From positions 120,001 through 152,000 of the forward strand of contig NZ_CP045921.1 in the NCBI RefSeq assembly GCF_025273655.1: DNA of 32,000 nt. The letters run 5' to 3'. The notes below the pieces were generated by a model. It was not told where the DNA came from and did no database searches. It saw nothing but the letters and a program-made list of their open reading frames with translations. Origin of the DNA: Candidatus Saccharimonadota bacterium. Lineage in GTDB: Bacteria > Patescibacteriota > Saccharimonadia > Saccharimonadales > Saccharimonadaceae. The number at the start of each line of letters is the position of its first letter. Positions within the stretch are counted from its first letter, which is position 1. This document shows positions 2,769 through 31,124 of the stretch, one piece after another. The position numbers and the translations under genes were made by a program.

Positions 2769-3683
2769 GTGAAGCGAATTTTTATCAGTAGTGTTGTAGC
2801 GATAATACTTGCACTGGCGAGTGTTTCCCAGGTAGCATTTGCAGCAGATGCCCAGCAAGTCGCTCCTGCGACTCCAGATGAGAGCATCACACTCTCGCCG
2901 GTGAGTACTCGTTTTGCGATTGATGCCGGTCAGCAGCGAGCTGGTGAGATGACAATCGTCAATGATGGCAAATCCGACTATGACTTTATCGTCTACGCGC
3001 GGCCGTATTGGGTGGCTAACGACTCATATGATCCGGTGTTTACAAAAGGCTCCAAGCAAAGTGATGCATACCAGTGGGTACGCTTGCCGCAGACGAAGTT
3101 CCACGCCAAATCCGGTGAGACGGTCAAAGTACCCTATACTATCGATGTGCCGGCTACTGCTGCGCCCGGCGGTCATTACGGTGTTATATTTGCCGAGACT
3201 CAGCCCTCCAACACTGGCGAGCAGGGCAATTCTGTGGAGCGCAAAAAACGTGTTGGCATGATCATTTATGCCTCGGTCAACGGGCAAACGATCAACAAGG
3301 GTGAGATTGTCGGTAATCAAGTACAGTTTTGGCAGACACAACCGCCAATGAAGGCGACGGCTACTGCGCGCAATGAAGGTAATGTCGACTTTGTAGACAA
3401 AGTGACATTTGCCGTCAAAGACATGTTTGGCAATCCAAAGTATGTTATCACTAAAGAATACCCAGTACTGCCCCAAACGACACGTAGTATCGGGCTTGAA
3501 TGGCCACAGTCGCCATGGTTTGGCCTGTTTAAAGTAGAGATTCAGCAGCAATTCCTCGACAAAGAACTAACATCGACGCATTATGTACTGATGATGCCGC
3601 GTCTTCTACCGGTCTTGCTGATAGCGCTCCTTGTGATAGGAGGTGGTGTTGCGCTCCTTCACCGCAAAAAACGCAAGGCGTAG
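2769..3683 (+). CDS. Signal-peptide protein with beta-sandwich ectodomain and C-terminal TM anchor (DUF916/DUF3324-like WxL-interacting-protein architecture)
   Basis: 304 aa. Signal peptide ...SQVAFA. Segments ITLSPV..F.I.AGQ...G.MTIVNDG and GGHYGVIFAE. C-terminal hydrophobic helix LLPVLLIALLVIGGGVALL followed by HRKKRKA. GTG start after CAGGAGA. Confidence 0.7.
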   Translation: MKRIFISSVVAIILALASVSQVAFAADAQQVAPATPDESITLSPVSTRFAIDAGQQRAGEMTIVNDGKSDYDFIVYARPYWVANDSYDPVFTKGSKQSDAYQWVRLPQTKFHAKSGETVKVPYTIDVPATAAPGGHYGVIFAETQPSNTGEQGNSVERKKRVGMIIYASVNGQTINKGEIVGNQVQFWQTQPPMKATATARNEGNVDFVDKVTFAVKDMFGNPKYVITKEYPVLPQTTRSIGLEWPQSPWFGLFKVEIQQQFLDKELTSTHYVLMMPRLLPVLLIALLVIGGGVALLHRKKRKA

Positions 3684-4485
3684 CTTCGCGTATCTCACGC
3701 TACTGGCGGTCATTCTGACGAGTCAGGCGGCGCCAGCATGGGCGCAGTCGAGTAGCGTCTATGCGACACTTTGTGGCACCACGTCACATATCACGATCGC
3801 TCAGCCTGCAAGCGACAGTACGGTTACGGCTGCTCAGGTGACCGTCAGTGGTACGGTGGCACAGGCAAATCAGATCGAAGTGTATATCGACGATGAGTTT
3901 GATAGCACGATACCACTAACTGTTGGACAAACGACTTATAGCGGTAGCGTGCAACTACCAAATGGCACGCATACACTTCGCGTGGAAGCGATTAATAGCT
4001 GTAGTGGTCAAAACGGCGAGGCGACGAGTGTCGTGACATATACGATACCTCCGGCTCAGGCGTCTTCTGGTACTGCGGCGGCGACTGGGGTAGCTCCGGC
4101 TCAAGGCGGTGCGGTGACTATCGGCCCAGCTCCAACTGTATCGCAGGGTGTTGGGGGGGCTCCCCGGCAGGAGGCGGCGATGCCGCTCGGATTGCCACCA
4201 CTTCTGGGGCGCCCACTCGAACAGGCGCTCGATTGGCTCAATATCGCACCCCACGATCAACAAAGCGGCGCAACAGGCTTATCACTTGGACGCGCGATGT
4301 TCGTGGTATTGGGTATGTATTTCCTCGTATTGGGCGCGGCGCCTACATTGGTGCACACCCTGGCTGGACTCGGGGTGGTCACTCGAGTGACACCGCAGTC
4401 CAACAGTGCACGTCGCCAGTATCTCGTGCGATGGGGTGTGCGGGTTGCTGGGCTGCTAGTTTTGTTACTCGCACTGTTTCTGTAG
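3643..4485 (+). CDS. Signal-peptide protein with Ig-like domain, Ala/Pro/Gly linker and C-terminal TM helices
   Basis: 280 aa. Signal peptide ...APAWA/QSS. Ig-like segment ITIAQPASDSTVTAAQVTVSGTV...GTHTLRVEAIN. Two C-terminal hydrophobic helices. The start overlaps the previous gene by 41 nt. AGGAGG at 3638-3643 suggests the real start may be TTG 3649. Confidence 0.7.
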   Translation: MVLRSFTAKNARRSFAYLTLLAVILTSQAAPAWAQSSSVYATLCGTTSHITIAQPASDSTVTAAQVTVSGTVAQANQIEVYIDDEFDSTIPLTVGQTTYSGSVQLPNGTHTLRVEAINSCSGQNGEATSVVTYTIPPAQASSGTAAATGVAPAQGGAVTIGPAPTVSQGVGGAPRQEAAMPLGLPPLLGRPLEQALDWLNIAPHDQQSGATGLSLGRAMFVVLGMYFLVLGAAPTLVHTLAGLGVVTRVTPQSNSARRQYLVRWGVRVAGLLVLLLALFL

Positions 4486-4491
4486 TCGCGC

Positions 4492-4497
4492 TATACT
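4492..4497 (+). promoter_or_regulatory. TATACT -10 box, 6 nt upstream of the mutM ATG (leaderless-type)
   Basis: gcgcTATACTaggggcATG. There is no room for an SD at functional spacing. Confidence 0.4.
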
Positions 4498-4503
4498 AGG
4501 GGC

Positions 4504-5370
4504 ATGCCAGAACTTCCTGAAGTAGAAACCGTGCGACGTGGACTCGACGGGCTGATTGTGGGTCGCGTTGTCCGTAGCGTTAGTGTGCGTGATTCGCCCA
4601 AAAGTTTTCCGAACGCCCAGGCTGATGTTGACCAGTTTTTCATCGGTGCAGAAATTATCGCTGTGCGCCGTCGCGCCAAAGTATTACTTGTCGATCTCAG
4701 TACCGACTATACTCTCGTGATTCACCTCAAGATGACTGGGCAGCTGGTGTATCGTGGTGAGCAGGTGTTTGGTGCTGGCCACCCAAACGATTCGCTGATT
4801 GGCGAGCTTCCGGACAACTCGACACGTGTTATGATCGAGTTTATGGACAATTCGTGGCTCCATTTTAACGATCAGCGCAAATTTGGCTGGATACGACTTA
4901 TGCCAACTATTGAGGTTCCCAATATTGATTTTATGCAGCGTGTTGGCCCCGAACCCCTTGAGGCAGATTTTACGCCAGAGGAGTTTGCGGCACGATTCAT
5001 ACGTCGTGCCCGCACTAACATCAAGGCAGCATTGCTAGACCAAACTGTCGTAGCGGGCGTGGGTAATATCTATGCCGATGAGTCGCTCTGGGGTGCACGG
5101 ATCAGCCCTAAACGCCTAGTGGCAGAGGTGACACCCGGCGAATTTACCACCCTCTACACAGAACTACGCAGCGTCATGAATCTTGCCATAGAAAAGGGCG
5201 GGAGTACAGATAAAAATTATGTGAACGCCGAGGGAAAACGTGGGAGCTATATGGATTTTGCGCGGGTGTTTCGCCGTGAAGGCGAGGCGTGCCCACGGTG
5301 CGGCGCGACGATAGAAAAGATCAAGTGGGCGGGTAGAGGTACACATCTGTGTCCGAATTGTCAGAAGTAG
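4504..5370 (+). CDS. mutM: Formamidopyrimidine-DNA glycosylase (Fpg/MutM)
   Basis: 288 aa. N-terminal MPELPEVE catalytic signature. C-terminal zinc finger CPRCG...CPNCQK. Confidence 0.95.
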   Translation: MPELPEVETVRRGLDGLIVGRVVRSVSVRDSPKSFPNAQADVDQFFIGAEIIAVRRRAKVLLVDLSTDYTLVIHLKMTGQLVYRGEQVFGAGHPNDSLIGELPDNSTRVMIEFMDNSWLHFNDQRKFGWIRLMPTIEVPNIDFMQRVGPEPLEADFTPEEFAARFIRRARTNIKAALLDQTVVAGVGNIYADESLWGARISPKRLVAEVTPGEFTTLYTELRSVMNLAIEKGGSTDKNYVNAEGKRGSYMDFARVFRREGEACPRCGATIEKIKWAGRGTHLCPNCQK

Positions 5371-8435: not shown

Positions 8436-8465
8436 TTGACGAGTAGACAAAGCTTATGGTACAGT
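8436..8465 (+). promoter_or_regulatory. Candidate promoter TTGACG-18-TACAGT for the DHH-like gene
   Basis: TTGACG 8436-8441 and TACAGT 8460-8465. The predicted TSS lies downstream of ATG 8456, which favours ATG 8510 as the start. Confidence 0.4.
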
Positions 8466-8509
8466 GGTACCAAAATCTAGATAAAACACAAAAATTCAAG
8501 GAACAACAG

Positions 8510-10498
8510 ATGAACGACACAGGCGCAAAGCAGCAAATCGTCGATACGATCCAGGGTGCGGATACGATATTAGTTACCGTGAGCGCAGATCCATCGGTCG
8601 ACGAGTTATCAGCGGCGCTTGGCCTCACAATGTATCTCAACGATATGGGTAAGCATGCTACGGCAGTGATGAGTGGTGCGCTGCCGCCCGCTATCACTTT
8701 CCTAGAGCCAGAGAAGACATTTGAGCCGACTGTCGATAGTCTACGCGATTTCGTGATTGCACTCGATAAGGAAAAGGCTGACCACTTGCGCTATAAGGTT
8801 GAGGGCGACGTGGTGAAGATTTTTATCACCCCCTACAAGACAGTGATTACCGACAAAGACTTGCAGTTCACCCAAGGAGATTACAATGTCGAGATGGTGA
8901 TTGCACTCGGCGTGACGGATCAGGATCACCTCGACAAGGCACTGGCTGCGCATGGCAAAATCTTCCATGATGCTTCGGTAGCAACTGTGGGTCTGAGCCA
9001 GAGTACACTTGGTACAATCGACTGGACTGACGAGTCTGCTAGTAGTGTGTCAGAGCTCACAACGAGTCTCATCGATGGACTCAAAAGTGAAGAGCACCCG
9101 GTATCGTCGCAAGTAGCGAGCTCACTTCTGACCGGTATCGTAGCGGCGACTGATCGTTTCAGCAACGATAATACATCGGCGCGCACGATGTCACTGGCTG
9201 GTGAACTGATGGCATCAGGTGCCAACCAGCAACTTATCGCATCGAAACTGCGTGAAGGTGCCAAACTACCGCTTCAAGATGACGGTAGGACCAAAAAAAT
9301 CGACAAGTCTACCCCAGAGAAAAGTAAGCCCTCCGACGAGCAGCCAAAGCGTCGTGATGGTGGTCTGAGTATCGCGCACGACGCCGAGCAGGAAGACGCG
9401 CCAGAGACACCAAAACCACGAGCCAAATCTGCTCCCAAGAAACCGATGATTGAACCACTCACTGCACAGCCGAGTGATAATCCAACTGAGGTGCTTGATC
9501 ATGCGCTCAAAAAGGCTGAAGCAGATCGCAGCGCGGCAGCCGAGCAGCAGACAGACGATCTCATCGCGTCGGTCACCGAGGAAGCAAATGCGGCCAAATC
9601 AGTAGAGGACGTCCTGTCTGAGCAGCTTGCAGCTGTGGCACCTCCTGCTGCACCAATTGCCGACGAGCTTCAACAGGCAGCTCCAGATGAGCCGAAGCTC
9701 AGCCCAGCCAAATCGCTTGTAGACACGCCAGATACAGAGGAGCCATCGTTTGGGGGTACACTGAATGCTACCGCCGAAGCCGCCGCCGAAGACAAACGAA
9801 ACGCTGATTTGAATCGCAACAAGACGATTTTGTCACACGAAAGCGGGCAATATGTCGGCGATACTCAGCCAACGTTTGAATCACCGCTCAATGCTGCGGG
9901 TCAGACAGGTGAGCAGCCATCGATAGATCCATTTGCGCCAGTGACCACCGCGCCAGCTGCCCCTATCGCACCGTTGAACCCGTTGCCACCGCTTGAGCCT
10001 ATTGCGCCAGCAACCCCTACGGGTACGCTTGCAGATATTGATCAACAAAACCGTGCCACCGAGGCGATCGTACCGGATGCATCTTCTGCTGATGCCGCGC
10101 AGAGCGCGCTCGACGCTGTTATCCAGGCAGCGCCCGACCCTCAACCATTCAACCCGCTCGATGTCATAGAGACGGCGGCGCCAGCGCCAGCTCCTCAGCT
10201 CGACAATACACCTACGGAGGGTGCACCCATGACACCGCCACCACCGCCGATGCCAGATTTTGCGCAGCTTCCACCTCTCCCGCCACCGGTCTTCCCGGCG
10301 AGTAGCGGTGTAGATATACCAGAGACACCAAGCGCGCCTGCTTTGCCGCCATTGGAGCCACAAGCGCCAGAGCTACCGCAAGCACCACTACCTCCGGAGC
10401 AACTCGGCAGTGTGCTGCCCGAGGCACCAAGTTTGCCGCCCGCACAAGACGCAGGCCCAACCGATCCTAAACAGTTTAGAATCCCCGGCCAGCAGTAG
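8510..10498 (+). CDS. DHH-family (NrnA-like) domain protein with degenerate catalytic motifs and ~400-aa Pro/Ala/Glu-rich disordered tail
   Basis: 662 aa from ATG 8510 (SD AAGGAA; alternative ATG 8456). WTDESASSVSE and GIVAATDRF segments resemble NrnA-type DHH domains. The DHH position reads FHD. No DHHA1/GGGH region is present. Confidence 0.75.
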   Translation: MNDTGAKQQIVDTIQGADTILVTVSADPSVDELSAALGLTMYLNDMGKHATAVMSGALPPAITFLEPEKTFEPTVDSLRDFVIALDKEKADHLRYKVEGDVVKIFITPYKTVITDKDLQFTQGDYNVEMVIALGVTDQDHLDKALAAHGKIFHDASVATVGLSQSTLGTIDWTDESASSVSELTTSLIDGLKSEEHPVSSQVASSLLTGIVAATDRFSNDNTSARTMSLAGELMASGANQQLIASKLREGAKLPLQDDGRTKKIDKSTPEKSKPSDEQPKRRDGGLSIAHDAEQEDAPETPKPRAKSAPKKPMIEPLTAQPSDNPTEVLDHALKKAEADRSAAAEQQTDDLIASVTEEANAAKSVEDVLSEQLAAVAPPAAPIADELQQAAPDEPKLSPAKSLVDTPDTEEPSFGGTLNATAEAAAEDKRNADLNRNKTILSHESGQYVGDTQPTFESPLNAAGQTGEQPSIDPFAPVTTAPAAPIAPLNPLPPLEPIAPATPTGTLADIDQQNRATEAIVPDASSADAAQSALDAVIQAAPDPQPFNPLDVIETAAPAPAPQLDNTPTEGAPMTPPPPPMPDFAQLPPLPPPVFPASSGVDIPETPSAPALPPLEPQAPELPQAPLPPEQLGSVLPEAPSLPPAQDAGPTDPKQFRIPGQQ

Positions 10499-10532: not shown

Positions 10533-11219
10533 CTATGTGCGTATGATGAAATGGTTGACTGCCACTTGGTCGCCATGCGCGGCCAAGTGTGCCTCGCCAT
10601 CGCCGCGCTGCGAATGATGACAGCGGATGATATCACGCACTGTGTCTAGTGCTGCGCGGGCATCGACCGTCTCGTTGATCTCACTTAGACTACGTCCGGC
10701 AGGCATGTAGATCCAGTCAATGTTGTGTGTAGGAAACATATCACGCGAGACGCATGCGTAGCGGATGCGACTGAGTGCTAGCCCTTCGCTCTTGAGGGTG
10801 TAGTAGGCGTGTGTGGCTGCGCGCGAGGCAACCGTGTGGTCGATATGGCCGGTGATGCCATTGTCGTCTATTGTCATGAATTCCACTTCGTACTCCCCAC
10901 CATGCTGCGAGGCGATATCGCGCACGATACGAGCAATGCGCTGTTGAGCGTCGATGAGTGTTGTATTGCACAAGCAGCCGTCGTCGTAGCCTAGATGGTG
11001 TGTCGCGGTGGCACCAATCAACTCTGCCGCCGCCTGCCATTCAGCTAGTCGGACTGTACCCAGCTCTATATGTGACTCACTGTTGATGCCTGCCGCTCCA
11101 TTTGTAAGAGTGATGAGGTGGAGCTCAGTGCCGCTCCGTGTCTCAAGCACTAATGTACCGCTCGGCCCGAACGCTTCATCGTCAGGATGTGCGAAGACGG
11201 CAAAGAGGAGTTTTTTCAT
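10533..11219 (-). CDS. PIG-L/LmbE-family N-acetylglucosaminyl deacetylase
   Basis: 228 aa from the internal ATG (MKKLLFAVFAHPDDEAFGPSG, the PIG-L signature), plus HxDH-type motif GHIDH. The 77-codon upstream extension in the track overlaps truB and was trimmed. Confidence 0.85.
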   Translation of the reverse strand: MKKLLFAVFAHPDDEAFGPSGTLVLETRSGTELHLITLTNGAAGINSESHIELGTVRLAEWQAAAELIGATATHHLGYDDGCLCNTTLIDAQQRIARIVRDIASQHGGEYEVEFMTIDDNGITGHIDHTVASRAATHAYYTLKSEGLALSRIRYACVSRDMFPTHNIDWIYMPAGRSLSEINETVDARAALDTVRDIIRCHHSQRGDGEAHLAAHGDQVAVNHFIIRT

Positions 11220-11225
11220 ATATTT

Positions 11226-11233
11226 AGTATACT
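11226..11233. promoter_or_regulatory. Palindromic AGTATACT: shared -10 element for divergent PIG-L and truB
   Basis: It reads TATACT on both strands, 8 nt before the truB ATG (11242) and 6 nt before the PIG-L ATG (11219, minus strand). Confidence 0.45.
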
Positions 11234-11241
11234 TGATAGCG

Positions 11242-11901
11242 ATGACCGACGGAATTATTCTGATAGATAAACCAGCCGATATGACGAGCTTCGGTGTAGT
11301 AGCGCGTGTACGGCGAGTGCTGAGCAAGCAATCTGGCAAAAAGGTCAAGGTGGGGCACTGTGGTACGCTTGATCCGTTTGCAACAGGACTGCTCATACTC
11401 TGCGTCGGCAAAGAGTGTAAAAACGCAGGTACGTATATGAAGCATGACAAGGTCTATGAGGCAACGTTTCGCTTAGGGCAGAAGAGCTCAACTGGTGACC
11501 CTGAAGGCGAACTGATCGACGTTTCTGACAAAGTGCCGACGAGAGATGAGATAGTAGCGGCACTTCAGCAGTTTACCGGTGACATTCAGCAGCGCCCGCC
11601 CATCTTCAGTGCACTTAAGATAGACGGGGTGCGCGCGTACAAGCTGGCGCGTGACGGCCGGAAGGTTGAGATTCCGCTGCGTACAGTGACAATTCATAGT
11701 TTGGAGCTGGTCGACTACAATTATCCAGACCTCAAAGTGCGCACACATGTTAGTAGCGGTACCTACATCCGTAGTCTTGGCGTCGATATAGGCCAGGCGC
11801 TTGGTACGGGTGCCTACTGCAGTCAACTCCGCCGTACGAGTATCGCTGACTGGCAGGTGAGTGACGCACGGGTGCTGGCAGATTTCGGTGTAAGTTCCTA
11901 G
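11242..11901 (+). CDS. truB: tRNA pseudouridine(55) synthase TruB (short form, no obvious PUA domain)
   Basis: 219 aa from ATG 11242. GIILIDKP..MTS and catalytic-Asp motif GHCGTLDPFATGLL. Confidence 0.9.
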   Translation: MTDGIILIDKPADMTSFGVVARVRRVLSKQSGKKVKVGHCGTLDPFATGLLILCVGKECKNAGTYMKHDKVYEATFRLGQKSSTGDPEGELIDVSDKVPTRDEIVAALQQFTGDIQQRPPIFSALKIDGVRAYKLARDGRKVEIPLRTVTIHSLELVDYNYPDLKVRTHVSSGTYIRSLGVDIGQALGTGAYCSQLRRTSIADWQVSDARVLADFGVSS

Positions 11902-12009: not shown

Positions 12010-12038
12010 TTGCAGCCTCTGTAAAAATCTGCTACAAT
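12010..12038 (+). promoter_or_regulatory. rpsO promoter TTGCAG-17-TGcTACAAT
   Basis: -35 at 12010-12015, extended -10 with TACAAT at 12033-12038, and ATG 7 nt downstream (12046). No SD is present. Confidence 0.5.
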
Positions 12039-12045
12039 AGCCCGG

Positions 12046-12312
12046 ATGATTACTAAAGAGAACAAGCAGAAAGCGATTGCTTTGACTCAGGTCAGCAAGA
12101 ACGATGTCGGCAGCCCGCAGGCGCAGGTATCTATCTTGACGGCTCGTATCAAAGAAGTTACAGAGCATCTTAAAGCCAACAAGCATGACTTTATGGCTCG
12201 TCGCGGCTTGGTGCAGATGGTAGGACGCCGCAAGCGTCTCCTCAAATACCTTGAGCGTACTGACTTCGATGCCTACAAGGCAACCGTTTCGAAACTTGGA
12301 CTACGCAAATAG
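12046..12312 (+). CDS. rpsO: 30S ribosomal protein S15
   Basis: 88 aa. GSPQAQVSILTARI..L..HLK.NKHD..RRGL..MVGRRKRLLKYL is the S15 signature. Confidence 0.95.
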   Translation: MITKENKQKAIALTQVSKNDVGSPQAQVSILTARIKEVTEHLKANKHDFMARRGLVQMVGRRKRLLKYLERTDFDAYKATVSKLGLRK

Positions 12313-12320
12313 TGCGAGTT

Positions 12321-12360
12321 CAAACAAAAAAGTCCCGCCAAGTCGGGACATTTTTGTTTG
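12321..12360 (+). terminator. Rho-independent terminator after rpsO
   Basis: caaacaaaaa-a-gtcccg-ccaagt-cgggac-a-tttttgtttg. GC stem extended by A/T arms, with a T-run following. Confidence 0.8.
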
Positions 12361-21034: not shown

Positions 21035-22198
21035 CTACTTTAACCACGGCCACTTTTTGGTTTTAGGCTGGGTTGAATCTGATGCCTGGTCAGGAAGTTT
21101 GACGTGTTTCACGCCCTGTGCCTGGTCAGTAAGTTGCTGTTGCATAGCCGCTTGGCGCTCTGGTGTAGCGATGTCGAGGGTGAAGCTGAAGGTGGAACCT
21201 TGACCGAGCGTGGATTGTTTGAGATAAATATCCCCGCCCATGTGGTGCATGATAAGCTTTGTAATGTAGAGCCCGAGCCCAGTGCTTTTAGATGAGTCGC
21301 CGCGAAGTGGATTATTGGATGTTTGGAAGAATTTGCCAAAGAGAGACGCTTGTTCTTCTGGTGGGATACCCGCACCGCTGTCTGTCACGGAAACTTCGAT
21401 CATGGTGGGACTCGCGGCAAGCGAGATAGTTATGCTACCAGCTTGAGTGAATTTGATAGCATTGCTCACAAGATTGGTCAGGACTTCACGCACCTTGGCT
21501 GGGTCGCCGACGACAGGGTAGCCAAGTAACTCAGACTGTTGCACGGAGAGGGCAAGATTACGCTGCTGTACGAGCACTGTGAGTGGTTGTACAGCTTCTG
21601 TGATAAGCGCGCCAATTTGTACGACCTGGAGATCAAACGTCGCGCGGCCATCTTCAAGTCGAGCCATCTCCAGGATGCTGTTTACCATATTGAGTACATC
21701 TTCGCTGCCGCTACGCACGAAACCGATGAGCTGCCTTGGCACTTCTTCAGCAAAGAGCTGGCTGAAATCTTCTTGGAGTAGTGATGCGTTGCCACGCACA
21801 GCAGTAAGCGGCGTGCGGAGTTCGTGGACGAGGGCAGGGATAAGCTTGGCGCTTTGATCACTTGATTTATCGTGAATAGAGAGCAGCCGTCCGAGAAGCT
21901 TACTCTGTTCGTCGAAGATCGGGGACAAGTAGACTGACAGATGTGATTCGTGTACGTCGAGATCTCCAAAGTTGCAGGTTAACCGGTTAGGTCCACAATG
22001 GATGACGTGTTCCATGAACTGTGTGTGCTGTGGCAATACACTTGCGATTTCGTGCAGATCCGTCGGTTCGCCTTGAACTCCAAGAAGCTGTCTTGCTTTA
22101 TCATTGATGCGTGTAATTTTATACTGATTATCAGCAATAATCACTCCGTAGTCGAGGTAATCCGTGGAGCGGGCGAGTGTATCAAGTATTGTGCTCAT
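21035..22198 (-). CDS. Cytoplasmic sensor histidine kinase (PAS-like N-terminus, HisKA, HATPase_c)
   Basis: 387 aa. H-box LVHELRTPLTAV. N, G1 and G2 boxes NLVSNAIKF, DSGAGI, GLGLYITK. No TM segment. Confidence 0.9.
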   Translation of the reverse strand: MSTILDTLARSTDYLDYGVIIADNQYKITRINDKARQLLGVQGEPTDLHEIASVLPQHTQFMEHVIHCGPNRLTCNFGDLDVHESHLSVYLSPIFDEQSKLLGRLLSIHDKSSDQSAKLIPALVHELRTPLTAVRGNASLLQEDFSQLFAEEVPRQLIGFVRSGSEDVLNMVNSILEMARLEDGRATFDLQVVQIGALITEAVQPLTVLVQQRNLALSVQQSELLGYPVVGDPAKVREVLTNLVSNAIKFTQAGSITISLAASPTMIEVSVTDSGAGIPPEEQASLFGKFFQTSNNPLRGDSSKSTGLGLYITKLIMHHMGGDIYLKQSTLGQGSTFSFTLDIATPERQAAMQQQLTDQAQGVKHVKLPDQASDSTQPKTKKWPWLK

Positions 22199-22208
22199 GC
22201 TTGTTGGT

Positions 22209-22214
22209 AGTATA
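22209..22214 (-). promoter_or_regulatory. TATACT -10 box (minus strand), 10 nt upstream of the histidine kinase ATG
   Basis: The minus strand reads cttATACTaccaacaagcATG, with TATACT spanning 22214 to 22209. Confidence 0.35.
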
Positions 22215-22251
22215 AGCTACTCATACGAGAGTCGCAAACGAGCAAATCTAG

Positions 22252-22257
22252 TATACT
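22252..22257 (+). promoter_or_regulatory. TATACT -10 box, 9 nt upstream of the UDG ATG
   Basis: tctagTATACTtgatcatatATG. Confidence 0.35.
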
Positions 22258-22266
22258 TGATCATAT

Positions 22267-22839
22267 ATGGATACACTATCGACGCTCGATGAGCTGCGGC
22301 AACAGTTACTTACACAAAAAATCTGTCCCAATCTGGCGGCGAGTGCGACACAACTAGTAATGGGCGATGGTAACCCGGATGCTGATATTGTGTTTGTTGG
22401 AGAAGCACCAGGTAAGGCAGAGGACGAACAGGGGTTGCCATTTGTAGGGGCAAGCGGGCGTTTTCTGAACGAGATGCTCGAAGCGGCAGGGCTAGTGCGC
22501 AGAGATGTGTACATCACAAATATCGTGAAGTATCGACCGCCAAATAACCGTGACCCCACACCGGAAGAAAAGCGCGAATTTTGGCCATATCTCATGCGCC
22601 AGCTCGAAATTATCAATCCAAAAGTCGTCATTACCCTGGGGCGACACAGTGGAATGTGCTTTATCCCGGATCTGCATATTTCGCGTGACCATGGTCATGC
22701 ACGCAAGGTGAAATATCGTGAACATGAATTCCTCGTGATACCGCTCTATCATCCTGCGGCAGCATTGTATAACGGCGGGATGCGGCAGACGCTCATAGAT
22801 GACTTTTTGGCAGCGGCGAAGCTGGCAGAAACCACCTAG
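22267..22839 (+). CDS. Uracil-DNA glycosylase, family 4-type
   Basis: 190 aa. Motif A VGEAPG..ED and PFVG.SG. C-terminal HP motif (LYHPAA). Confidence 0.85.
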   Translation: MDTLSTLDELRQQLLTQKICPNLAASATQLVMGDGNPDADIVFVGEAPGKAEDEQGLPFVGASGRFLNEMLEAAGLVRRDVYITNIVKYRPPNNRDPTPEEKREFWPYLMRQLEIINPKVVITLGRHSGMCFIPDLHISRDHGHARKVKYREHEFLVIPLYHPAAALYNGGMRQTLIDDFLAAAKLAETT

Positions 22840-26681: not shown

Positions 26682-26753
26682 ACAAACATTCGCCGCAGAG
26701 TAGCGTAGGAAATAACACCACGTCCACCTGCACGAAACCGACAAAAACAGTAG

Positions 26754-26759
26754 TATACT
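26754..26759 (+). promoter_or_regulatory. TATACT -10 box (within palindrome TAGTATACTA), 7 nt upstream of the ftsK ATG
   Basis: cagTAGTATACTAgagctaATG. Confidence 0.4.
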
Positions 26760-26766
26760 AGAGCTA

Positions 26767-29052
26767 ATGGCAAAAAAGAAGAAAACCACTAGGGGTAAAA
26801 AAGCTGCACCGTCCAAGCCACAACACATGTTGCCGGCTGGTTTTTGGGCGCAAGTTGGCGCCGTAGCGCTCATCGTCGTTTCGATACTCTATATTGTGGC
26901 GTGGTTTGGCGCGGGCGGGCCGGTGCTCGATTGGGTGCAAGCGATGAGCCTGGAGTTTATCGGTTATGCGGTCTATGTGCTGCCAATCTTATTTACGTAC
27001 CTGGCTGTGGAGACTTTCCGCGCTAGTAACAACAAACTGGCGCTCATGACCAAACTTTCAACTGCACTTCTGGTAGTGTGGTGTGCCGGTCTCTTTGGGC
27101 TTATGCAAGATGGTTCAGGTAATGCTACTGGTGGCTGGGTGGGCGCTACACTCAATGATAATGTCATGCTGCCGATGGTGAGCCCGACCGTAGCAGGGTT
27201 TATCTATGTGGTTCTCATCGTTATCACCGTGCTATTTGTACTGCGCGTGTCGCCGTTTACTGTTATCAGTCGTGTCTGGGGTTGGATTAGTACCAATATG
27301 CGCGAAGAAGAGCGTACCAACAAAGAGGTGATCAAAAAAGCAAATGCAGAAGAAGCGACCAAAAGCACTGGTATTCGCTTGAAGTTTGGTGGCAGTGAAA
27401 AAGACAAAAAAGACGAAGACAAATCGAACGATATCGCCGAGCTCAAACTCAAAGGTATGGTGACAGCCGATGCCGAGGAAGAGAAACCAAAACCACGCCT
27501 GTCGAGCCTACGTGGTAGTGTCCAGCAGGACAAGGTTGCCGAGGAGAAGCAGGCACTAGTAGCTGTTAACGACCCGAACTGGCAGGCACCAAGTCTCGAT
27601 CTACTAGAAAAGAAGCAGAAACCAGCCGATCCAGGTGATGTCCAGCAGAGTGCTCAGACGATCAAAGATACTTTGAGCGAGTTCAACATCGATGTGGAGA
27701 TGGAAGGTGCCAATGTCGGACCAAAGGTGACGCAATATACACTCAAGCCGCCAAGTGGTGTCAAACTGACCCGTATTACGGCATTGGAGACCAATATCGC
27801 ACTCAATCTGGCTGCGCAGAGTTTGCGTATGGAAGCGCCAATTCCTGGTCAAAAAGCTGTGGGCATTGAAGTGCCAAACTTGCGTGCGGCCGACGTGCGT
27901 TTGTACGGCATTCTGGAATCCAAGCAGTGGAAGACGAGTACCCAGCCGCTCAGTTTTGCGATAGGTAAGGATATCTCTGGTCATGCCGTAGTCGGCGAGC
28001 TCAACAAGATGCCCCACTTGCTGATTGCCGGTCAGACGGGCTCTGGTAAATCTGTGATGATCAATACGCTTCTGACGAGCTTGCTCTACCGCAATAGTCC
28101 GAGCCAGATGAAGCTGATTTTGGTGGATCCGAAGCAGGTCGAGATGGCACCGTACGAAGACATTCCGCATCTGCTGACACCAGTGATCAACGAGCCTGAA
28201 AAGACCGTAAGTGCACTCAAATGGGCTGTCAATGAGATGGAGCGCCGCTACAAATTGCTGGCCGAAGAAAAGGTGCGTGAGATAGAGAGTTACAATAAGC
28301 GTTTGGCGCAGCGTGGTCGCAAAATCTCCGTCGAAGACGAAGAAGGTAATATGCAGGAGCACGAAGAGGGCACAATGCCGTACATCGTAATCGTAATCGA
28401 CGAGCTGGCTGACCTGATGATGCTGGCAGCTCGCGATGTAGAGGCGCTGATCGTGCGCCTAGCGCAGAAGGCTCGTGCTGTTGGTATCCACCTGGTATTG
28501 GCGACGCAGCGTCCGAGTGTCAATGTCATCACCGGCCTTATCAAAGCCAACGTACCGGCGCGTATCGCCTTTACAGTGGCGAGTCAGGTGGACAGCCGTA
28601 CGATTCTGGATGTGATGGGCGCCGAGAAGCTGCTCGGCCAGGGTGATATGCTCATGAAGACTGCTCAGATGGGCAAACCGAAGCGCGTGCAGGGCGCGTG
28701 GGTGACGGATGAAGAGGTGCTCAAGATTACCGATCATCTGCGCATGCAGAGCGCACCGCAGTATAACGACGAGATTGTGGCGCAGCCCGTGCAGCTCAAC
28801 GGCAAGGGTGGTGTGGTGATGGATTTCGACAGTGACGGTACTGATGATATGTACAAAGATGCCGTGCGCGTGGTGGTAGAGAGTAAAAAGGCGAGCACGA
28901 GCTTGCTGCAGCGTCGTCTACGTATTGGCTACGCACGCGCTGCTCGTGTGATCGAAGAGCTCGAGGAACAAGGCGTAATCGGACCGGCTGACGGTGCCCG
29001 TCCTCGCGAGGTGCTGATTAGTAGTCTTGACGACCTTAACAGTGGTGAATAA
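26767..29052 (+). CDS. ftsK: DNA translocase FtsK/SpoIIIE
   Basis: 761 aa. N-terminal TM helices and a charged linker. Motor domain with Walker A GQTGSGKS and Walker B VIVIDELAD. C-terminal gamma winged-helix LLQRRLRIGYARAARVIEELE. Confidence 0.95.
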   Translation: MAKKKKTTRGKKAAPSKPQHMLPAGFWAQVGAVALIVVSILYIVAWFGAGGPVLDWVQAMSLEFIGYAVYVLPILFTYLAVETFRASNNKLALMTKLSTALLVVWCAGLFGLMQDGSGNATGGWVGATLNDNVMLPMVSPTVAGFIYVVLIVITVLFVLRVSPFTVISRVWGWISTNMREEERTNKEVIKKANAEEATKSTGIRLKFGGSEKDKKDEDKSNDIAELKLKGMVTADAEEEKPKPRLSSLRGSVQQDKVAEEKQALVAVNDPNWQAPSLDLLEKKQKPADPGDVQQSAQTIKDTLSEFNIDVEMEGANVGPKVTQYTLKPPSGVKLTRITALETNIALNLAAQSLRMEAPIPGQKAVGIEVPNLRAADVRLYGILESKQWKTSTQPLSFAIGKDISGHAVVGELNKMPHLLIAGQTGSGKSVMINTLLTSLLYRNSPSQMKLILVDPKQVEMAPYEDIPHLLTPVINEPEKTVSALKWAVNEMERRYKLLAEEKVREIESYNKRLAQRGRKISVEDEEGNMQEHEEGTMPYIVIVIDELADLMMLAARDVEALIVRLAQKARAVGIHLVLATQRPSVNVITGLIKANVPARIAFTVASQVDSRTILDVMGAEKLLGQGDMLMKTAQMGKPKRVQGAWVTDEEVLKITDHLRMQSAPQYNDEIVAQPVQLNGKGGVVMDFDSDGTDDMYKDAVRVVVESKKASTSLLQRRLRIGYARAARVIEELEEQGVIGPADGARPREVLISSLDDLNSGE

Positions 29053-30254: not shown

Positions 30255-31124
30255 TTATAGAGAGTTGTAGATCAGATTTGCTATAGCGCTGCTGCCGAGA
30301 GGGGTGGGGTGGCGTGTCTGATATAGCGAAGCGGGGGCGTCGCCATTGAACCAGCGCTCAGAACCGCTACAGACATCGTGGCCGTTTTGGGCTGGCGTGT
30401 CGACATCGACAAAAGTTACACCTTGATTATCTGCGGCAGTCTTGAGCGTGCCATTGAACTGAGCGAAGAAACCGGTAACAATGGGTCCGTCGGCATTGCT
30501 ATAGCCTGCCTGGAACGCACATCCAGTGGAGTCGTAGAGTCCGCCATGACCAACAAGTACTACTTGTGCAGTCGGTGCACGATTTTTTACTACCTGTAAG
30601 ACTTCTTCTACTTTTGGCTGTAATCCAGCCAACGCAGTAGCGATTGATGGTTGTAGATTTTGATCATCTCGGCACTTGCGGTCTATGCCGGGTATCATGC
30701 TGATACATTTGTCCACGAATTGCGACCAACCGATGTCGTTTCCGCCGATAGAAACTGTGACAAGGTTGGTGTCACTCGTAACGGCGTCAATCTGTACTGG
30801 CACCGAGGCGAGCAGTGTTCGCTGTGGTGAGCTGAGGATATTTTCTGTTTTTGCTGCGGTGCACGATTTGTCTATCAAAGTGGCGCCAAGGCGTCCGGCG
30901 AGGACTTTGGGGTACGATGACGAGGTTTGTCCGCAACCATTGCCTGTGAGTACTGATGTGTACGTAGGTGCGGCTGCTCGGGAATCTCCAAGTGCAACAT
31001 ACCTCACCGGCGCTTGGGGTGGGGCTGCAAACAGAGTGTGTGCAGCGAGTAGCGAAACCAGGCTTGCGATCCCGAGCACAAGTGCAATGAATAGATTGGT
31101 ACGATAACGATATCTAGTATTCAT
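30255..31124 (-). CDS. Secreted SGNH/GDSL-family hydrolase (lipase/esterase)
   Basis: 289 aa. Signal peptide ...HTLFA/APP. Block I YVALGDS, block III SIGGNDIG, block V region HPT. Strong SD AGAGGAGG. Confidence 0.85.
   Translation of the reverse strand: MNTRYRYRTNLFIALVLGIASLVSLLAAHTLFAAPPQAPVRYVALGDSRAAAPTYTSVLTGNGCGQTSSSYPKVLAGRLGATLIDKSCTAAKTENILSSPQRTLLASVPVQIDAVTSDTNLVTVSIGGNDIGWSQFVDKCISMIPGIDRKCRDDQNLQPSIATALAGLQPKVEEVLQVVKNRAPTAQVVLVGHGGLYDSTGCAFQAGYSNADGPIVTGFFAQFNGTLKTAADNQGVTFVDVDTPAQNGHDVCSGSERWFNGDAPASLYQTRHPTPLGSSAIANLIYNSL

Follow-up and report, generated by a model that had tools for sequence, protein, structure and literature searches.

The 22 nt (atatttAGTATACTtgatagcg) that separate two divergent genes in a genome of Candidatus Saccharimonadota probably form a bidirectional core promoter, which is predicted to produce two leaderless or nearly leaderless mRNAs. 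They occupy positions 11220-11241 of a stretch of 32,000 nt from contig NZ_CP045921.1 (assembly GCF_025273655.1, positions 120,001 to 152,000 of the forward strand), hereafter called the window. On the left, the gap is bordered by the minus-strand ATG (11219-11217) of a gene for a PIG-L/LmbE-family deacetylase, here designated PIG-L, and on the right by the plus-strand ATG (11242-11244) of truB, encoding tRNA pseudouridine-55 synthase. A palindrome, AGTATACT, lies between the two start codons and contains TATACT on both strands (Table 1). An earlier sequence-only reading had described this palindrome, the 22-nt gap, the presence of TATACT on both strands and the spacings of 6 and 8 nt to the start codons, and all of these are confirmed by their coordinates in the sequence. 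It had also stated that no Shine-Dalgarno site could fit on either side. Indeed, inspection of both strands of the 22 nt revealed neither GGAG nor GAGG nor AGGA.

The conservation of this layout was studied in related genomes. A TruB-based scan of reference genomes provided 21 relatives within the Saccharibacteria (Saccharimonadales), with a TruB identity of 62-81%. The divergent PIG-L/truB layout is present in 13 reference genomes, with TruB proteins 65-81% identical, and in these the arrangement reads CAT, 6-7 nt, core, 6-9 nt, ATG. Over these 13 genomes, the mean pairwise identity is 0.89 for the 8-bp core, 0.47 for the spacer on the PIG-L side and 0.34 for that on the truB side; in the flanking 20 codons it is 0.44 at third positions and 0.88 at first and second positions. 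The core is conserved like codon positions 1 and 2, and the spacers drift like third positions. Metagenome contigs were then scanned with a PIG-L profile, and the enlarged sample, related genomes plus metagenomes, comprised 94 PIG-L starts. A TAnnnT hexamer ends 5-10 nt upstream of 85 of these starts and is TATACT in 66 of the 85, with a spacing of 6 nt in 63, 7 nt in 20 and 8 nt in 2. A divergent truB start is located within 330 nt of PIG-L in 55 of the 94, and the gap measures 20-24 nt in 43 of these 55 loci (20, 21, 22, 23 and 24 nt in 4, 9, 19, 8 and 3 loci, respectively). The 43 short-gap loci correspond to 41 distinct intergenic sequences. TAnnnT stands 5-10 nt upstream of both starts in each of the 43, compared to a background of about 10% of all ATG trinucleotides with such a hexamer at that distance in the related DNA. 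As for truB, one of the hexamers TATACT, TATAAT, TAAACT or TAGAAT is found 6-10 nt upstream in 53 of the 55 loci near PIG-L, the truB-side spacer in relatives being 6-10 nt long, mostly 7-8 nt. That one palindromic -10 element is read on both strands for two divergent genes, as had been proposed from the sequence, is thus strongly supported by the core and spacer lengths, which are conserved at 43 loci with drifting spacer sequences.

The variants of the core are informative as to what is conserved. Among the 41 distinct short-gap sequences, 24 contain the perfect palindrome AGTATACT, 11 the asymmetric core AGTATAAT and one ATTATACT, and the other five have 10-bp cores (AGTATAGAAT, AGTGTAAACT, AGTATAAACT, AGTATATACT and ATTGTACAAT) in which the two hexamers overlap by TA only. 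The palindrome is lost or altered in AGTATAAT, ATTATACT, AGTATAGAAT, AGTGTAAACT, AGTATAAACT and ATTGTACAAT, and T1, A2 and T6, the positions important in a sigma-70-type -10 element, are kept on both strands. Perfect AGTATACT is absent from 17 of the 41, two of which have a different 10-bp palindrome; 15 have no dyad symmetry whatever, and TAnnnT stands on both strands in all 41. From these sequences, dyad symmetry itself, which an operator would require, is not the property that is conserved. The dinucleotide AG precedes TATACT in 12 of the 13 focal cores. Among 30 TATACT promoters of other genes, AG is present in only 6, and a preceding G in 12. AG is thus kept for the sake of the hexamer on the opposite strand and not as part of a general extended consensus.

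Relatives in which the two genes have moved apart point in the same direction. Wider gaps of 26, 29, 42, 43, 48, 58, 67, 68, 90, 107, 150 and 189 nt are found, and inserted genes part PIG-L and truB in relatives L003 and L008. In such separated pairs, that of L004 among them, nearly every gene retains its own hexamer at 6-9 nt. For gaps of 42-189 nt this holds for all but two of 20 gene starts, the exceptions being PIG-L in L091 and truB in L085. Examples are PIG-L with TATACT at 6 nt in L004 and L008 and with TATGAT at 7 nt in L003, and truB with TATAAT at 9 nt in L008. Where a different gene lies upstream of truB, TATACT or TATAAT is present 7-9 nt upstream of truB in six of seven relatives (L003, L014, L015, L019, L040 and L042), a count that covers relatives with a clear truB start and with PIG-L absent or distant; the seventh, L010, has no such hexamer. 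These separate hexamers, together with the non-palindromic variants that keep T1, A2 and T6, also back the central proposal. In L008, the two genes are separated by about 850 bp (3525-4376 in that sequence) that are much more GC-rich and contain an open reading frame (ORF) of about 240-270 codons. This insert has the appearance of foreign DNA by which the shared promoter was divided, each gene having kept its own hexamer.

The signature is not restricted to these two genes. For each plausible gene of the window, 50 nt of upstream sequence were examined, and two kinds of gene starts were found: starts with an AGGAGG-like Shine-Dalgarno sequence and a leader, and starts in which TATACT, TACAAT or TATAGT precedes the start codon by 6-10 nt, leaving no room for a Shine-Dalgarno site. 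The former include 2147, 2769, 18875 (pnp), 23532, 30255-31124 (minus strand), 31306 and rpsT; since AGGAGG precedes these genes, the organism does use Shine-Dalgarno sites elsewhere. The latter (Table 1) account for about 11-12 of roughly 34 genes, i.e. about a third, in the 32 kb plus flanks examined. Among them, fpg (mutM) has TATACT 6 nt before its ATG (4492-4506), and the Pfam domain Fapy_DNA_glyco aligns with the protein from residue 1 (MPELPEVE). In the Fpg family, Pro2 is the catalytic N-terminal nucleophile. Because of this alignment the fpg ATG cannot be misplaced, and it provides an independent anchor for the leaderless-type layout. TATACT is also found 6 nt before the fpg ATG in L002 and L018, and the spacers of these three genomes are unrelated. 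In the window as a whole, TATACT occurs 24 times versus 10.65 expected, a number reached in none of 100 shuffles. A test independent of gene calls was done in 359 kb of DNA from the window and its 21 relatives: of 198 copies of TATACT, 60 were followed after 6-10 nt by an ATG with an ORF of 80 codons or more (30, 14, 8, 6 and 2 copies at 6, 7, 8, 9 and 10 nt). Three control hexamers gave 0-3 copies each in the same test. Genes outside the focal pair account for half of the instances (30 of 60), and TATACT is preferred over TATAAT or TANNNT (58 versus 21 copies at 6-9 nt). As judged by these counts, the leaderless-type start signature is general in this Saccharibacteria lineage. Besides PIG-L/truB, only spurious antisense ORFs were found when the 359 kb were searched for other divergent pairs sharing a hexamer.

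Table 1. Predicted promoter elements of the PIG-L/truB gap, the two genes, and other gene starts of the window with a hexamer shortly upstream
Feature	Position	Strand	Details
Shared 8-bp perfect palindrome AGTATACT	11226-11233	both	core of two overlapping putative -10 hexamers (overlap: central TATA, 4 bp)
Putative -10 hexamer TATACT, PIG-L	11231-11226	minus	6 nt before PIG-L ATG
Putative -10 hexamer TATACT, truB	11228-11233	plus	8 nt before truB ATG
6-nt spacer (discriminator), PIG-L side	11220-11225	minus	canonical +1 (7th nt after hexamer) is A11219 of the ATG
8-nt spacer, truB side	11234-11241	plus	7th-9th nt after hexamer are C11240, G11241 and A11242
PIG-L/LmbE-family deacetylase, 228 aa	10533-11219	minus	Pfam PF02585, E=6.7e-22, residues 7-139 on model positions 2-129
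truB, tRNA pseudouridine-55 synthase, 219 aa	11242-11901	plus	TIGR00431, E=5.1e-66, 222 bits (cut-off 151)
fpg	start 4504		hexamer spacing 6 nt
holA-like gene	start 5733		hexamer spacing 7 nt
rpsO	start 12046		TACAAT, spacing 7 nt
Pilin gene	start 12396		hexamer spacing 9 nt
LCP gene	start 13220		hexamer spacing 7 nt
ABC ATPase gene	start 14958		hexamer spacing 10 nt
Histidine kinase gene	start 22198	minus	hexamer spacing 10 nt
UDG gene	start 22267		hexamer spacing 9 nt
ftsK	start 26767		hexamer spacing 7 nt

We infer the transcription starts, the leaderless translation and the competition between the two directions from this geometry, and the mechanism could be as follows. A sigma-70-type RNA polymerase holoenzyme would recognise TATACT as -10 element, and because AGTATACT is self-complementary the holoenzyme could bind in either orientation. 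In one orientation, the non-template strand would be the minus strand, with A at 11230 and T at 11226, and the DNA would open leftwards; transcription would start at or next to A11219, giving an mRNA that begins with the PIG-L AUG. In the other (A at 11229, T at 11233), the DNA would open rightwards over the truB ATG, and the start would be A11242 or 1-2 nt earlier (G11241, C11240), resulting in a leaderless or near-leaderless truB mRNA. Melting would nucleate at the central TA/TA in either orientation. The distance between the divergent starts predicted from the hexamer positions is 21-23 bp in the window, and the A-to-A distance in relatives is 21-25 bp. Both directions would be -10-only promoters, a type that is usual in leaderless-rich bacteria. 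As neither transcript has room for a Shine-Dalgarno site, translation would proceed by binding of the ribosome to the 5'-terminal AUG. Since the same 8 bp and nearly the same footprint would be used, the two orientations could not be occupied at once. For this steric reason, expression of the two genes might be competitive or mutually exclusive, as had been suggested from the sequence. For five bidirectional promoters of E. coli, however, competition was negligible at basal activity and appeared only with one direction strongly activated (PMC12825309).

Several observations weigh against this interpretation. No -35 or TGn (extended -10) element is recognisable at the PIG-L/truB gap; the sequences located 17 bp upstream of the hexamers are GAGGAG on the truB side and TTCCGT on the PIG-L side. 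A sigma-70 consensus scan demanding both a -35 and a -10 element missed the site for want of a -35; this miss was not counted against the promoter, since most of the other leaderless-type promoters of the window are without a -35 element too. The truB spacer (8 nt here, up to 10 nt in relatives) is longer than the canonical 6 nt, so truB may carry a leader of 1-3 nt. TATACT or TATAAT found lineage-wide 6-9 nt before ATG speaks in favour of the proposal that both products are leaderless, but a leader of 1-2 nt is possible for truB. Both ORFs are open 5' of the proposed starts, PIG-L to a TTG at 11450 and truB to a GTG at 11008, and only homology, rather than any stop codon, excludes longer PIG-L and TruB products. 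As the sequences compared are orthologous, the counts given above do not represent independent events. Open-access papers and bioRxiv yielded no report on promoters, start sites or leaderless expression for either Saccharibacteria or the Candidate Phyla Radiation. Finally, L019, L042 and L091, which form one lineage, have GAGGAA or GAGGAG at 8-12 nt from the conserved PIG-L start (MGKI...), on its upstream side, and the leaderless mode is therefore not universal. In L019 (9880-10001 in that sequence), a 30-codon in-frame extension of PIG-L reaches an ATG located 23 nt from truB, and the core at this extended ATG, ATTATATACT, has TATAAT at 6 nt on one strand and TATACT at 7 nt on the other. L019 may thus produce either an N-terminally extended leaderless product or an mRNA with a leader of about 90 nt and a Shine-Dalgarno site. 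This arrangement looks like a switch between the two initiation modes.

The two ATGs were taken as the true starts on the basis of the profile alignments and the conserved N-termini in relatives. TruB residues 3-209 align with positions 2-204 of the TIGR00431 model, and the Pfam TruB_N domain is found with E=7e-51. The PIG-L N-terminus is conserved among the 94 homologues; BshB1/MshB-type matches of the window's PIG-L protein are weak and below cut-off. The N-termini MKK(I/L)(I/L)FG..FAHPDDE for PIG-L and MxDGI(I/L)LIDKP for TruB recur in dozens of relatives with differing upstream contexts. The same alignments and N-termini led us to reject the extensions to 11450 and 11008 as true starts. 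An in-frame TTG at 11233 was also rejected as truB start; it is unconserved, and relatives have CTG there or another spacer. Between the window and L001, TruB is 81% identical and PIG-L only about 51%, so these genes that would share a promoter evolve at very different rates.

Other explanations for the gap were considered. It is unlikely that TATACT is not a promoter and that both genes are instead transcribed from promoters further upstream, inside the opposite coding regions, with leaders that lack a Shine-Dalgarno site and are translated in an S1-dependent or structure-dependent manner, as in Bacteroidota. The ORFs that stay open upstream would be compatible with such leaders, and the sigma-70 scan did return one weak promoter-like sequence on the plus strand (TTGATA-17-TATTCT, 11233-11261), though downstream of the truB ATG. 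Upstream promoters leave unexplained, however, why TAnnnT keeps fixed distances of 6-7 and 6-10 nt from the ATGs in 43 of 43 loci with drifting spacers, why the same signature stands before many unrelated genes, and why nearly every gene of the separated pairs has its own hexamer. Moreover, the minus strand upstream of PIG-L has no gene for more than 5 kb that could supply read-through. We attach a similarly small probability to the possibility that only the PIG-L direction, with its canonical 6-nt spacing, is truly leaderless, truB being expressed via a short leader or from another start and the plus-strand TATACT being partly a by-product of the palindrome. The tight spacing for PIG-L (6 nt in 63 and 7 nt in 20 homologues) and the looser one for truB (6-10 nt) would fit this. 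It is difficult to reconcile with the truB hexamer retained 7-9 nt upstream in six of the seven relatives in which PIG-L is absent or distant, L010 being the one without, and with the cores AGTATAAT and AGTATAGAAT, which improve or preserve specifically the truB-side hexamer.

A perfect 8-bp inverted repeat between divergent genes is the classic layout of an operator, and it is kept in 24 of the 41 distinct sequences. The palindrome could primarily be bound by a dimeric transcription factor, or be a restriction-modification or methylation site (GTATAC), co-regulating both genes, but we consider this very unlikely. The asymmetric variants, which keep T1, A2 and T6 on each strand, weigh against an operator or restriction site: AGTATAAT (11 sequences), AGTATAGAAT, AGTGTAAACT and AGTATAAACT break the dyad and preserve TAnnnT on both strands at the right distances. 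In addition, the same hexamer precedes many unrelated genes, mostly without the AG (present in 6 of 30) or the G (12 of 30), and in separated pairs the half-sites part, each following its own gene. An additional factor could bind at the palindrome, but nothing requires it. As the element is short (8 bp) and TATA-rich sequence is common between genes, a palindrome arisen by chance in an AT-rich gap may be envisaged; its probability is negligible, AGTATACT being present in 3 copies in the window versus 0.30 expected, and the conservation of the core at the level of codon positions 1 and 2 (13 genomes, 43 loci) refutes it. Furthermore, tRNA and Rfam scans of the whole window gave no match, and therefore no RNA element accounts for the region.

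The proposed bidirectional promoter can be compared with systems described previously. Overlapping -10 elements drive divergent transcription in many bacteria, with divergent starts expected 7-25 bp apart, and a short pseudo-symmetric sequence suffices for transcription both ways (Warman et al., bioRxiv 10.1101/2020.01.31.928960). That symmetry of the -10 hexamer can generate bidirectional promoters, on which the sequence-only reading relied, is thus borne out as a principle. Common distances between the starts of bidirectional promoters are 18, 10 and 23 bp (NAR 2026, PMC12825309). As in the promoters of Warman et al., the hexamers of PIG-L and truB on opposite strands overlap, polymerase would bind in one orientation at a time, and the A-to-A distance in the window, 23 bp, is one of the common distances reported. 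In the dominant class of E. coli, the starts are 18 bp apart, and a 1-bp offset between the hexamers lets positions 2 and 6 pair. In contrast, the PIG-L/truB hexamers overlap by their first four bases (TATA), for which the canonical distance is 21 bp; the A-to-A distances observed are 21-25 bp. Both mRNAs are predicted to be leaderless, and they come from conserved housekeeping genes. With both products leaderless, the promoter would be the whole intergenic region. The layout is kept across the whole lineage, whereas Warman-type promoters are enriched in horizontally acquired DNA.

The gene starts also resemble those of 'group C' bacteria as defined with GeneMarkS-2, which have leaderless transcription and a Pribnow box 6-8 nt from the start (PMC6028130). 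As in this group (Actinobacteria and Deinococcus-Thermus, PMC6028130; D. deserti, PMC4007540), a Pribnow-like TAnnnT precedes the start by 6-8 nt without a Shine-Dalgarno site, ATG is strongly dominant, and about a third of the window genes have the signature, others being Shine-Dalgarno-led. The box is located 6 nt (PIG-L) and 8 nt (truB) from the ATG, and the lineage has its peak at 6-9 nt. The differences are the phylum, Saccharibacteria/Patescibacteria, and the preference for TATACT over TATAAT or TANNNT. Divergent genes with overlapping promoter elements, of which one transcript can be leaderless, are also known from lysG/lysE of M. tuberculosis (PMC5648196). Regions of that type measure about 100 bp and contain an operator for the encoded regulator and separate sets of -10 and -35 elements, whereas PIG-L and truB, neither of which codes for a regulator, lie 20-24 bp apart and have the -10 core itself in common. 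lysG/lysE, with a region of 108 bp, was thus rejected as an equivalent double-leaderless promoter. We found no description of a double-leaderless promoter with a shared -10 element in open-access papers and bioRxiv. Bidirectional promoters based on -10 symmetry and leaderless expression are both known; what appears to be new, in the literature searched, is their combination, this geometry and this phylum.

Other observations were made in the window. A second divergent leaderless-type pair (22196-22269) consists of a histidine kinase gene (21035-22198, minus strand) and a UDG-family gene (22267-22839, plus strand), 68 nt apart. It has two separate back-to-back TATACT hexamers, one on the minus strand (22214-22209) 10 nt before the kinase ATG and one on the plus strand (22252-22257) 9 nt before the UDG ATG. 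As the latter is embedded in AGTATACT (22250-22257), it could, when read on the minus strand, also drive transcription towards the kinase gene from a second start, with a leader. The third AGTATACT of the window, within 26752-26769, places TATACT 7 nt before the ftsK ATG. Read on the opposite strand, it faces another gene start (26579) at a distance of about 170 nt, and divergent or leadered transcription is possible there. The rpsO gene has its own TACAAT 7 nt before its ATG (12033-12048), rather than co-transcription only with truB. It is followed by a GC-rich hairpin with T-runs on both strands (12332-12349), which looks like a bidirectional terminator. Three tandem paralogous genes at 792-2749 (792-1466, 1488-2105 and 2147-2749) are all Shine-Dalgarno-led, and their products have a signal-peptide-like N-terminus followed by a shared ASAAS(T/Q)TA(N/S)T..NA.VGS motif. 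A gene converging on PIG-L (8456-10498) encodes a protein of 680 aa without Pfam match, the C-terminal half of which is long, Pro/Ala-rich and of low complexity; its homologue lies directly upstream of truB in L014 and L040, which have no PIG-L at that position.

The PIG-L/truB gap may thus represent a natural minimal symmetric bidirectional promoter, with the 6-nt versus 8-nt discriminator as sole asymmetry, and it would be a clean substrate for asking what decides the orientation of RNA polymerase and whether competition matters. The natural series of variants (4-bp overlap, 2-bp overlap, abutting and fully separated hexamers) suggests that promoters can merge or split with their function kept. 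In a wider view, which we hold with about even confidence, a module of 20-24 bp, consisting of one self-complementary -10 core and two discriminators of 6-8 nt, would contain all information for the initiation of transcription and translation of two housekeeping genes; it would have been kept across the order and act as a synteny lock, expression being set by the orientation of RNA polymerase, and Saccharibacteria, perhaps Patescibacteria more widely, would be leaderless-rich. The sequences analysed here provide evidence that in Saccharibacteria, members of the Candidate Phyla Radiation with its uncultured majority, a large fraction of the genes may have -10-only promoters and leaderless mRNAs. 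This would matter for the annotation of gene starts and for expression tools designed for those few strains of Saccharibacteria that are in culture.

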